This document shows, piece after piece, positions 6,001-9,000 of a DNA stretch of 64,000 bases; position 1 is the first letter of the stretch, and every line of letters starts with the position of its first letter. The DNA lies in the NCBI RefSeq assembly GCF_053078305.1, contig NZ_CP166879.1, one strand, 5' to 3'. The position numbers are program-made.

Positions 6001-9000
6001 GCGCAGACGTTCCAGGCCAGCGAAGCATCGAGATTCAGTCCGGATGACTGGCGATCTTCCGGCAGATAAACGAGACCGCGCAGTAAACGTTCTCCAGTGG
6101 ATAATCTATTGATCTCTTTATCATTCAGCATAATGCGTCCGCCACGCAAAGTACGTAGACCATAGAGCGTCTCGGCCAGTTCTGTGCGTCCAGCACCCAC
6201 CAGCCCAGCCAGACCCAGAATTTCTCCGGCATTTAGCGTCATGCTGACATTCCTGAAACCTTCGCCAGTCAGATTTTCCAGTGTCAGCACCGACGTTCCT
6301 GCGGCATGTTGTGGGCGGTTGCCAGGTAACTCCAGCCATAATTTTTGGCTGGCAGAGAGCGATTTTTCCCGTACCGCTGGGGTGATGGCCTGAATAATGT
6401 CGTCGGTAGACAGTTCGCTGGTTTTGCCGCTTAAGGCGATGGTTCCGTCGCGCATCACGCTAATTCGATCGGCAATCTGGCGAATTTCCGGCAGCTTATG
6501 CGAGATAAAAACAATACCCACGCCAGTAGCAAGCAGCTCTTGCAAGCGAGTAAACAAGCGTTCGGTTTCCGCAGGGGTAAGCGAGGCGGTAGGTTCATCG
6601 AGGATCAGAATCCGCGAGTCGCGCATCAGCCCGCGGAGGATTTCCACCATTTGGCGATCGGCGACATCCAGCGATCCTGCCAGACTATGCAGATCAAACT
6701 GGCAGCCCAGCGCCGCCAGCAAGTTCTTCATTTTCTGCATGGAGAGCTGTTTTTTTGCCAGCCCAAACAGGATGTTTTCTTTTATCGACAGGCTTGGGAA
6801 AAGCAGCGGTTCCTGGGGAACGAGATAAATGCCCAACTGATGAGCATGAACTGGCGTTAATCTAGTGTAATTATTGCCCCCAATCTCCAGCGTACCGCTA
6901 TCAGCAGGGGTAATACCGGCAATAATCTTCATTAACGTCGATTTACCGGCACCATTGCCGCCGAGCAGGGCGTGGACCTCCCCCTGATGCAACGTAAAAT
7001 CGATGCCTTTCAGGACATTGACCCCTGAATACTGTTTATAAACCGAGCGGGCGCAAAGTAGCGGTAACGCGCGGGTATCACTCGTTTGCATATTTCCCCC
7101 GTTCAGTTTTGCAGGTGAGTTTTGAACAAATGTATTTCTGCTTTTAATTTGTTCATAACCTTAGGTGGACATTGCACATATTTCCGACGAATAGATCACA
7201 ATTTATGCTATTTTGATTTTTACGGTTGCGTTTGTTCATACTTGTAGAGTCAAACTGTGGTTGCCATCACAGATATAAATGCGCAAGAACTGAACAATTG
7301 CATTAAAGATTTAAATATGTTCAAAGTGAAGAATGAATTATGACAATCAACGATTCGGCAATTTCAGAACAGGGAATGTGTGAAGAAGAACAGGTCGCGC
7401 GGATCGCGTGGTTTTACTACCACGACGGGCTGACCCAGAGTGAGATCAGCGATCGTCTCGGCCTGACCCGTTTGAAAGTGTCGCGATTACTGGAGAAAGG
7501 GCATCAGTCCGGCATCATTCGCGTGCAGATTAATTCTCGCTTTGAAGGCTGTCTGGAATATGAAACACAATTACGTAGTCAGTTTTCGCTGCAACATGTC
7601 CGGGTGATCCCTGGGCTTGCGGATGCTGATGTCGGCGGGCGACTGGGGATAGGCGCGGCGCATATGTTGATGAGTTTACTTCAACCACAACAGATGCTGG
7701 CGATTGGTTTTGGCGAGGCAACCATGAATACGCTGCAACGCTTAAGTGGTTTTATTTCGTCACAGCAAATTCGCCTGGTCACGCTCTCCGGTGGCGTCGG
7801 TTCTTATATGACGGGTATCGGACAGCTTAACGCGGCGTGCAGTGTGAATATTATTCCGGCTCCGTTGCGGGCATCCTCCGCTGACATTGCCCGTACGCTA
7901 AAAAATGAAAATTGCGTCAAAGATGTTCTGTTAGCCGCGCAAGCAGCGGATGTGGCGATTGTCGGCATTGGGGCCGTGAGTCAACAAGACGACGCGACGA
8001 TCATTCGCTCCGGTTATATCAGCCAGGGCGAACAGTTAATGATTGGCCGAAAAGGGGCAGTTGGCGACATTTTAGGCTACTTTTTTGATGCAAAAGGTGA
8101 CGTTGTCACGGACATTAAAATACATAACGAACTGATTGGCTTACCTTTAAGCGCGCTGAAGACCATACCCGTCCGGGTTGGCGTGGCAGGGGGAGAAAAT
8201 AAAGCCGAAGCAATTGCCGCTGCAATGAAAGGCGGTTATATCAACGCACTGGTTACCGATCAGGACACAGCAGCGGCGATTTTACGTAATTAAATTTGCA
8301 TGACCTTATTACCGGGAATGATGGAGAACGTATAGAGGAACAGACAGAACGCATAAGCCGAGGATAATCTAATGGCTCGACTCTTTACCCCTTCAGAATC
8401 AAAGTACTACCTGATGGCGCTGGATGCAGGCACCGGAAGTATTCGGGCTGTGATATTCGACCTGGAAGGCAATCAAATAGCAGTGGGACAGGCGGAGTGG
8501 CGGCATCTGGCAGTACCGGACGTTCCTGGTTCTATGGAATTTGATCTCAACAAAAACTGGCAACTGGCGTGTGAGTGTATGCGTCAGGCGTTGCACAACG
8601 CCTGCATAGCCCCGGAGTATATCGCTGCCGTTTCGGCATGTTCGATGCGTGAAGGCATTGTTTTATATAACAATGAAGGAACACCGATCTGGGCCTGCGC
8701 CAATGTGGATGCCAGAGCGGCGCGCGAAGTTAGCGAACTTAAAGAACTGCACAACAATACCTTTGAAAACGAAGTTTATCGCGCGACCGGACAAACACTG
8801 GCTTTAAGTGCCATCCCCAGATTACTTTGGCTGGCGCACCATCGTTCCGATATTTACCGTCAGGCATCAACCATCACCATGATCAGCGACTGGCTGGCCT
8901 ATATGCTCAGCGGCGAACTTGCGGTGGATCCCTCTAACGCTGGCACCACGGGACTTCTTGATCTAACCATCCGTGACTGGAAACCTGCATTGCTGGATAT

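Follow-up and report, generated by a model that had tools for sequence, protein, structure and literature searches.

Candidate LsrR operators and CRP sites in the divergent lsrA-lsrR control region of Escherichia coli

The divergent genes lsrA and lsrR are separated by an intergenic region that, as delimited by the ORF list and NCBIfam profiles, occupies exactly positions 7092-7339 (248 bp) of the window, the whole 64-kb stretch of DNA analysed here. The products of lsrR, lsrA, lsrK, lsrC and lsrD each exceed the cutoff of their own NCBIfam equivalog, with 954 bits for LsrA against NF011967 (cutoff 586) and 618.8 bits for LsrR against NF011947 (cutoff 486), and LsrR matches the PDB LsrR entries 4L5I and 4GO1 (E ~1e-202). 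E. coli genomes with annotated lsrA and lsrR show 99.5% identity to the region. In E. coli K-12 (b1512/b1513), the same genes flank an intergenic region of the same 248-bp length, with identical boxes A and R, CRP1, CRP2 and published motifs, and the only differences from the window are four single bases, all in spacers (7221, 7240, 7243 and 7282). This is an ordinary region and a known one, the divergent lsrA-lsrR switch of E. coli, whose LsrR boxes and CRP sites have been published previously. Its features and flanking genes are as follows.

5556-7091, minus strand: lsrA coding sequence (ATPase of the AI-2 ABC transporter, first gene of lsrACDBFG), from the ORF list, NCBIfam and matching E. 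coli genomes annotated in RefSeq.
7096-7100, minus strand: GGGGG, a presumed Shine-Dalgarno-like run of lsrA, lying in a conserved CC.CC block of a 15-sequence alignment, in which other genera have GGAGG.
7102-7123, minus strand: AAAACT-N7-AAAACTGAA, the published p-lsrA-box motifs (Xue 2009, as quoted in PMC8487509), a unique exact match in the window.
7123-7155, plus strand: box A, the lsrA-proximal candidate LsrR operator, TGAACA-N21-TGTTCA, from pattern, PWM and conservation; LsrR is presumed to bind here.
7158-7163, minus strand: TAAGGT, the predicted lsrA -10 hexamer, a conserved TAnnnT, with a predicted start near 7151.
7171-7178, minus strand: TGTGCAAT, where PMC5137460 reports the up-mutations G->A and C->T.
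7185-7200, no strand assigned: CRP1 (published CRPI), CGACG-AATAGA-TCACA, with its good half GATCACA at 7194-7200, from fixed offset and conservation.
7206-7238, plus strand: box M remnant, TGCTAT-N21-TGTTCA, with only the right half-site intact (TTTGTTCATA, 7231-7240), a repeat of the box A 10-mer.
7256-7271, no strand assigned: CRP2 (published CRPII, and the site of the first-pass annotation), TGTGG-TTGCCA-TCACA, from consensus match and conservation.
7291-7323, plus strand: box R, the lsrR-proximal LsrR operator, TGAACA-N21-TGTTCA, from pattern, PWM and match to the published p-lsrR-box.
7340-8293, plus strand: lsrR coding sequence (SorC/DeoR-subfamily repressor), NCBIfam equivalog NF011947.
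8372-9964, after lsrR: lsrK, NCBIfam equivalog NF008187.

Repression by LsrR, activation by CRP and induction by phospho-AI-2 are taken here from the literature. According to PMC5137460, PMC8487509 and bioRxiv 10.64898/2026.06.09.730415, one and the same repressor, LsrR, represses both divergent promoters, and CRP activates both. Binding of LsrR and its release by phospho-AI-2 have been reported for promoter fragments (PMC8487509, PMC13393413), and deletion of crp abolishes lsr expression (bioRxiv 10.64898/2026.06.09.730415).

The pattern TGAACA-N21-TGTTCA, searched on both strands, has exactly two matches in the 64-kb window, boxes A and R, and none in 100 dinucleotide-preserving shuffles. 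The two boxes lie in the same orientation with their starts 168 bp apart, and are 76% identical over 33 nt. A PWM derived from 100 boxes of orthologous loci and run over 128,000 positions gave box R 38.7 and box A 37.3, with the next-best site in the window at -0.9. The comparison set consisted of about 70 Enterobacterales lsr loci (68 or 69 distinct intergenic regions in the counts), and the identity values are those of the window against eight other lineages. All the intergenic regions examined carry a box A with a 21-bp gap; in 68 of 69 it shows at most one mismatch, the exact pattern is present in 64 of the 69, and Salmonella and Enterobacter likewise have the box. A search made independently of the PWM, with gaps of 15-29 bp allowed, gave 126 matches; the gap was 21 bp throughout, except in 13 second boxes of the Yersinia group (20 bp). 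The half-sites of box A are conserved at 0.94, compared with 0.58 for the whole intergenic region, and box R at 0.81; the spacing from box A to box R is 166-168 bp in 36 distinct loci. The two TGAACA/TGTTCA inverted repeats described by the first-pass annotation are thus real, being the sole matches in the window, absent from shuffled controls and conserved in orthologues. Loss of the repeats in orthologous lsr loci had been named as the observation that would speak against them; repeats and CRP site survive that test, because both repeats and CRP2 are kept from Escherichia to Rahnella, Photorhabdus and Yersinia.

The CRP site recorded at first, TGTGGTTGCCATCACA at 7256-7271 (CRP2), lies between boxes A and R and departs from TGTGA-N6-TCACA at one position (9/10). 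Matches of this grade number three in the window against 1.9 expected, and the match alone is not statistically unusual. CRP2 is convincing only because its pentamers are conserved (0.93 and 0.97) while its 6-bp spacer is not (0.21); on these grounds the earlier call of a near-consensus site is upheld. Its TCACA starts 24 nt ahead of box R in 35 of the 36 loci that have box R. CRP1 agrees with the consensus at six of ten positions, with a perfect right half that is conserved at 0.90 and a poor left half, matching at one position of five, that is not (0.57); 64 of 68 loci have TCAC at a constant 40-41 nt past box A. Two boxes also appear in the Fig. 2 legend of PMC5137460, in the order CRPII then CRPI from lsrR to lsrA, with CRPI next to TGTGCAAT.

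A consensus scan found no sigma-70 consensus promoter in the region, an absence that fits activator dependence and is not evidence that promoters are missing. No mapped lsrA or lsrR start was found in the literature searched. Past box A, at a distance of 2-4 nt, 65 of 68 distinct loci have a TAnnnT motif with varying inner letters, and this motif, read as the -10 hexamer, would place the lsrA start near 7151. The centre of CRP1, 7192.5, would then be at -41.5, in class II geometry; this is a predicted position, because the lsrA start itself is placed from the conserved TAnnnT. CRP2 lies about 112 bp from the predicted lsrA start, and its centre fits either -41.5 of an lsrR start (with AACAAT at 7293-7298 as -10 hexamer) or -61.5. 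More plausibly, CRP2 serves lsrR rather than lsrA.

The galP1 promoter is a class II CRP promoter with one good half-site. The lsrA promoter resembles this type in that the TGTGA half is promoter-distal, the poor proximal half replaces the -35 element and the centre would be at -41.5 of the predicted start, whereas it differs in that its start is a predicted one and in that a second CRP site, 71 bp further upstream, faces the divergent promoter.

For the repeats, a comparison is offered by DeoR, to which LsrR is homologous (NCBIfam DeoR model, 1.3e-46; PDB 8R7Y, 2.9e-28). The recognition-helix residues R44, S48 and R49, invariant in the LsrR alignment, align with R34 and R39 of Bacillus subtilis DeoR, which contact DNA, and the hexamer TGAACA recurs as the half-site of the DeoR operator in the structure solved with the DeoR DNA-binding domain. 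This operator (dra-nupC-pdp; PDB 8R7Y, 7BHY) ends in TTGAACA/TGTTCAA around an A/T-rich interior, as the LsrR boxes do, and the inducer is a sugar phosphate in both systems, deoxyribose-5-phosphate for DeoR and phospho-AI-2 for LsrR. The two systems differ in the operator gap, 24 bp in DeoR (TGAACA-N24-TGTTCA) versus 21 bp in lsr, and in architecture, with one operator upstream of one promoter for DeoR and, for lsr, a divergent region in which two or three operators are interleaved with CRP sites. In the DeoR and CggR structures, one tetramer covers one operator of 39-45 bp, in DeoR as a dimer of DNA-binding-domain dimers (PMC11229326). By analogy, the two 33-bp repeats are probably occupied by separate LsrR tetramers, one on each, and not bridged by a single molecule.

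Taken together, we consider it very probable that the region is the known lsrA-lsrR switch, built of two LsrR operators, A and R, and of CRP1 and CRP2. LsrR, a repressor of the SorC/DeoR type and a tetramer in the crystal, would bind the two 33-bp operators TGAACA-N21-TGTTCA, of which box A would reach from about -4 to about +29 relative to the predicted lsrA start, and box R would overlie the core of the lsrR promoter. Most likely, one tetramer would occupy each operator through two DNA-binding-domain dimers, as in B. subtilis DeoR, and each domain dimer would make one strong contact with an outer hexamer and one weak contact with the A/T-rich interior. Because neither promoter has a -35 element, both would depend on cAMP-CRP, with CRP1, the site with one good half, centred at -41.5 of the predicted lsrA start, and CRP2 having its centre at -41.5 or -61.5 relative to the lsrR start. 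Phospho-AI-2, the product of LsrK, would release LsrR and so turn both operons on. In this scheme, we infer where transcription begins, and likewise the class II geometry and the occupancy of one tetramer per box. A separate observation (PMC5137460) is that the lsrA promoter, about 150 bp off, is expressed more strongly when box R is mutated, an effect that two independent operators leave unexplained.

Between boxes A and R, the 10-mer TTTGTTCATA of box A recurs identically in box M, exactly 83 bp apart, and the right half of box M is conserved at 0.94. A full middle LsrR box in the window was rejected, as box M has a PWM score of -7.9; just a half-site therefore remains, and the E. coli set consists of this relic and two boxes at a distance of 168 bp (83 + 85). 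Elsewhere the middle box scores 1-21 (Citrobacter, Kluyvera, Mangrovibacter and others) or 26-37 (Photorhabdus, Xenorhabdus, Morganella), and three intact boxes are found in Salmonella (40.0, 27.6 and 40.5), Serratia sp. H1w and Entomohabitans. The next box follows box A at 83 bp in 21 distinct loci and at 85-86 bp in 13; Photorhabdus, Xenorhabdus, Morganella and Yersinia have two boxes 83 bp apart. Salmonella enterica shares with the window the order box A, TAnnnT, GATCAC, middle box, TGTGG-N6-TCAC, box R, but its middle box is intact (one mismatch), with spacings of 83 + 83 bp, compared with a right half-site and 83 + 85 bp in the window. The sequence comparison suggests that a middle operator exists in Salmonella. 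A simple tandem duplication of a CRP-plus-box module was rejected, since CRP1 is offset from box M by 13.5 bp but CRP2 from box R by 27.5 bp.

These spacings raise the possibility, which we hold only tentatively, that two or three LsrR operators form a phased array in the control region, repeating every ~83 bp (83 + 83-85 bp, about eight helical turns), and that tetramers on the same face of the DNA might cooperate and loop or wrap it around the CRP sites as a repressosome. That the spacings are held though the spacer sequence is unalignable between distant genera points in this direction, as do the three intact boxes of Salmonella, Serratia sp. H1w and Entomohabitans and the derepression of the lsrA promoter by box R mutations ~150 bp away (PMC5137460), which an array, if true, would explain. 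However, the fixed spacing partly follows from the tight packing of box, -10 hexamer and CRP sites, the middle box of the window is degenerate at -7.9, and looping by LsrR goes unmentioned in the literature searched. If the array were true, the real lsrA-side operator would be 7123-7155, and not the published motifs at 7102-7123.

On the placement of that operator, the published LsrR motifs fall inside the repeat on the lsrR side and next to it on the lsrA side. As quoted in PMC8487509, Xue 2009 gave AAAACT and AAAACTGAA for lsrA, and AACAAT and AAGATTTAA for lsrR, as the motifs crucial for binding. On the lsrR side, AACAAT-N7-AAGATTTAA is unique in the window (7293-7314) and falls inside box R, which coincides with the published p-lsrR-box at -237 to -197 from the lsrA ATG (7288-7328), where mutations derepress the promoter (PMC5137460). 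On the lsrA side, the motifs at 7102-7123 adjoin box A with a 1-nt overlap, so that the mapping as quoted would not coincide with the repeat of the first-pass annotation. Recent LsrR papers give the sites as A/T-rich motifs, without such a palindrome, and several regulon papers nominate targets in this way; no description of a palindromic or three-site LsrR operator was found in the literature searched, which did not include Xue 2009, Thijs 2010 or Wu 2013.

It is unlikely that LsrR recognises the A/T-rich pairs themselves (7102-7123 for lsrA and 7293-7314 for lsrR) and that the TGAACA/TGTTCA symmetry on the lsrA side is incidental. This reading draws on the motifs quoted as crucial and on the uniqueness of each pair in the window; AAAACT, for its part, takes in the first base of box A and its flank, and its mutation could therefore weaken box A. 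Against it, the stretch 7102-7122 has an identity of 0.42 in the eight other lineages, below the intergenic average of 0.58, and the full p-lsrA-box pattern occurs in 1 of 69 loci, being absent even from other Escherichia, versus 64 of 69 for the repeat. Moreover, the lsrR-side motifs lie within box R, which is 76% identical to box A. Conservation thus favours box A over the p-lsrA-box motifs as the lsrA-side operator (0.94 for its half-sites versus 0.42), and suggests that the published placement on this side may be a few bases off.

The first-pass annotation had one repressor occupying both divergent promoters and CRP activating from the middle. Control by LsrR and CRP is published and stands, but a single CRP site is too simple, as two have been published. 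Taken literally, with one central CRP site driving both promoters and one LsrR molecule occupying both repeats, the model appears quite improbable. The site at 7256-7271 is indeed real, conserved and located between the boxes, and the LsrR tetramer has several DNA-binding domains (PMC11229326); nevertheless, the site is ~112 bp from the predicted lsrA start, with the conserved CRP1 at -41.5 sitting between, and both CRPI and CRPII are drawn in PMC5137460. In addition, DeoR and CggR tetramers place all four DNA-binding domains within a single operator of 39-45 bp, and one domain dimer cannot reach two hexamers 27 bp apart.

That the repeats act as nucleic-acid structure, be it a hairpin in the leader RNA or a cruciform in the DNA, and not as protein sites is scarcely credible and was rejected because the symmetry stops at the hexamers without covariation: the arms of box A in the window do extend to 13 nt (92% complementary) and the lsrA leader strand could fold (-12.3 kcal/mol, z = -2.5), but across 98 distinct boxes complementarity is limited to the six-base half-sites and drops to 13-60% outside them, each position has a single pair type with no compensatory change, and, with the predicted starts, one arm of each box would lie upstream of the transcript.

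The main finding, two LsrR operators with two CRP sites, adds nothing new, as LsrR boxes and CRP sites have been published. The comparative gain is a sharper consensus, TGAACA-N21-TGTTCA, whose hexamers are common to B. subtilis DeoR; this consensus, the lsrA-side placement and the Salmonella middle operator are small, testable refinements for specialists. A correct operator definition is of practical use because the region is the switch of AI-2 quorum-sensing uptake and a widely used synthetic-biology promoter.

Several elements had been passed over in the first-pass annotation, namely the CRP1 half-site element, the TTTGTTCATA half-site at 7231-7240 and the limitation of the symmetry to the hexamers. 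A further minor point concerns TGTGCAAT, proposed as a CytR half-site in PMC5137460. As an alternative reading to CytR, the G->A up-mutation in this element would create a -10 hexamer, TACAAT.

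The control region lies in the gap between two divergent ORFs, identified as LsrA and LsrR by NCBIfam equivalog models above their curated cutoffs, as are LsrC and LsrD downstream of lsrA and LsrK downstream of lsrR.

5556-7091, minus strand, ORF, LsrA
7092-7339, lsrA-lsrR gap, 248 bp between the two ORFs
7340-8293, plus strand, ORF, LsrR

A 601-bp stretch around the gap has a 95-99.5% identical counterpart in 4187 of the 5426 complete E. coli genomes, in each case annotated as lsrA and lsrR. At megablast sensitivity, window 6900-7500 is absent from about 23% of these genomes, and three of its E. 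coli matches are plasmid-borne. Only four bases of the gap (7221, 7240, 7243 and 7282) differ from K-12 MG1655, and because none of these falls within a discussed element, published K-12 experiments can be transferred directly to window coordinates.

The gap carries two inverted repeats TGAACA-N21-TGTTCA, the lsrA-proximal box A (7123-7155) and the lsrR-proximal box R (7291-7323), together with the CRP site CRP2 (TGTGGTTGCCATCACA, 7256-7271), all by direct pattern match exactly where the first-pass annotation had placed them. These two are the repeat's only matches when both strands of the 64-kb window are searched, and no match was found in 100 shuffles of the window. The boxes are 33-nt copies with 76% identity, in the same orientation and with starts 168 bp apart; a matrix (PWM) built from 100 distinct orthologous boxes scores box R at 38.7 and box A at 37.3, the next best of ~128,000 window positions reaching -0.9. 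As both score better on the plus than on the minus strand (box A, 37.3 vs 29.8; box R, 38.7 vs 15.5), they are internally asymmetric and arranged as a direct repeat, and thus face their two promoters with opposite polarity.

Orthologous loci were collected by aligning 17 diverse LsrR proteins and fetching 80 loci from one-genome-per-species contigs, 68 of which have a divergent lsrA. In a scan that allowed any gap from 15 to 29 bp and up to one mismatch, the boxes kept a 21-bp gap throughout (79 exact matches and 47 with one mismatch), except for 13 Yersinia-group second boxes with a 20-bp gap. The exact repeat is present in 64/69 loci, so that its loss from orthologous loci, which would have spoken against the first-pass reading, is not what is seen. 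The alignment comprised Escherichia, Citrobacter, Kluyvera, Superficieibacter, Serratia sp. H1w, Entomohabitans and Mangrovibacter.

Identity of the window to the eight other lineages in the alignment
Box A half-sites, 0.94
Box R, 0.81
CRP2 pentamers, 0.93 and 0.97
CRP2 six-base spacer, 0.21
Whole gap, 0.58

A hairpin was considered for the boxes, as the E. coli arms extend by chance beyond the hexamers and allow a fold of -12.3 kcal/mol. Against it, in 98 distinct boxes complementarity is 83-100% at positions 1-6/28-33, with one pair type each, and drops to 13-60% further inside; judged from sequence, this symmetry is of the protein-site type, not the hairpin type.

LsrR belongs to the SorC/DeoR subfamily and matches PDB LsrR entries, B. 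subtilis DeoR (8R7Y) and K. pneumoniae SorC. In the structures, the DeoR operator is ATTGAACAAAATTTCAATTACCAATTTACATATGTTCAA, that is, TGAACA-N24-TGTTCA, and is occupied by one tetramer made up of two DNA-binding-domain dimers (PMC11229326). The half-sites are therefore common to the DeoR operator and the boxes, whereas the gap is N24 in the former and N21 in the latter. Moreover, a 10-residue LsrR helix aligns with DeoR ISRPTVSRLL, LsrR R44 and R49 corresponding, by our own count of the tag offset, to the DNA-contacting R34 and R39 of DeoR, and R44, S48 and R49 are invariant in 17/17 LsrR sequences. Because both half-site and helix arginines are shared, TGAACA is the expected target of this type of DNA-binding domain, and by analogy one LsrR tetramer per 33-bp box would be the most economical reading. 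Within its first 87 residues, LsrR of the window differs from crystallised K-12 LsrR (4L5I, 4GO1) only at residue 80 (7577-7579), Ser instead of Arg. Residues 1-12 of E. coli LsrR (7340-7375) are unconserved; because many orthologues align only from the nearly invariant Met13, the true start codon could lie at 7376, which would lengthen the lsrR leader.

[quoted passage not shown] Among 14 up-mutants selected with an lsrA-direction reporter, most were altered in or near the p-lsrR-box, and its restoration abolished the gain in 12 (PMC5137460). On the lsrA side, the p-lsrA-box motifs AAAACT and AAAACTGAA, as given by the group behind the published footprints (PMC8487509), map as AAAACT-N7-AAAACTGAA to 7102-7123 on the minus strand, in the lsrA leader, adjoining box A with a single base, 7123, in common. 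Identity in this stretch is 0.42, below the gap average, and the full pattern occurs in 1/69 loci; not even the other loci of Escherichia (L001-L003) have it. Thus, the comparative evidence points to the published site on the lsrR side but to one ~20 bp away from it on the lsrA side, where conservation favours box A as the candidate operator; the original footprint may well include it.

With regard to CRP, the CRP2 match is not significant alone, since three one-mismatch CRP sites were observed in the window against 1.9 expected; its TCACA, however, starts 24 nt before box R in 35/36 loci. No consensus sigma-70 promoter was found in the control region by consensus scan. When all loci were anchored on box A, two further fixed elements emerged: TAnnnT on the lsrA strand, 2-4 nt beyond the box in 65/68 distinct loci with varying inner letters, and TCAC, 40-41 nt beyond it in 64/68. 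Their copies in the window are as follows.

7158-7163, reverse complement (lsrA strand), TAAGGT, copy of TAnnnT
7194-7200, GATCACA, copy of the TCAC element

Taking TAAGGT as the lsrA -10 hexamer would put the start near 7151 and centre a second CRP site, CRP1 (CGACGAATAGATCACA, 7185-7200), at -41.5 with its good half distal. Given this start, the layout would be that known from class II CRP promoters in which a single half-site is good, for which galP1 is a comparison. CRP1 fits the published CRPI (PMC5137460), CRP2 then being CRPII, and lsr expression is CRP-dependent with conserved CRP sites in the gap (bioRxiv 10.64898/2026.06.09.730415). The centre of CRP2 (7263.5) and the inferred lsrA start are 112.5 bp apart; for lsrR, possible starts are 7305, with the -10 AACAAT (7293-7298) inside box R and CRP2 41.5 bp away, and 7325, with CRP2 61.5 bp away. 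An up-mutation, TGTGCAAT to TGTACAAT, has been explained as loss of a CytR site (PMC5137460). TGTGCAAT lies at 7171-7178 on the minus strand, and the change yields TACAAT, which resembles a -10 hexamer and lies upstream of box A; a promoter newly formed or strengthened by it and still repressible by LsrR would be the simpler explanation.

The first-pass annotation, in which one repressor occupied both promoters and CRP activated from the middle, is correct in its observation, which is functional, and right in outline in its interpretation, which is that of the published locus model and thus already known. It needs correction in three respects: there are two CRP sites, each box probably takes its own tetramer, and the published lsrA-side motifs do not coincide with the conserved box.

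Of all this, a three-box periodic layout alone might be new; no description of it was found in the literature searched, the key primary papers being outside its reach. The box A 10-mer TTTGTTCATA is repeated at 7231-7240, exactly 83 bp off, and window 7206-7238 reads TGCTAT-N21-TGTTCA (PWM -7.9), a middle box decayed to one half-site in Escherichia. Scores at the corresponding position are 1-21 in Citrobacter, Kluyvera, Mangrovibacter, Serratia sp. H1w and Entomohabitans and reach 26-37 in Photorhabdus, Xenorhabdus and Morganella; the score is 27.6 in Salmonella enterica (locus L082), whose boxes at 1281, 1364 and 1447 are spaced 83 + 83 bp. The middle box is intact in Salmonella and in the three genera scoring 26-37, as well as in Serratia sp. 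H1w and Entomohabitans (L082; L013, L015, L019-L036). Enterobacter cloacae lacks the middle box, but box A, box R and the two CRP elements are all present there; Photorhabdus, Xenorhabdus, Morganella and Yersinia are without box R and CRP2 (TGTGG-N6-TCACA). In these four genera (L019-L064), intergenic regions are longer (290-520 bp), LsrR has N-terminal extensions, and 150-310 bp separate the second box from the conserved LsrR core downstream of it.

Start to start, box A and the middle box are 83 bp apart in 21 distinct loci and 85-86 bp in 13, and boxes A and R 166-168 bp apart in 36, spacings that are fixed although the sequence between the CRP sites is unalignable across distant genera. 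Because these amount to ~8 and ~16 helical turns, and box R mutations act at long range, a cooperative, phased arrangement of LsrR boxes would be allowed; no discussion of LsrR looping was found in the literature searched.

Just past lsrK, an uninterrupted plus-strand ORF of 1806 aa spans 10495-15915; in K-12, yneO is listed beside lsrK (PMC3946193). The 9-mer CATATTTCC forms a direct repeat, its copies covering the start codon of lsrA (7089-7097) and adjoining CRP1 (7177-7185); this is probably due to chance.
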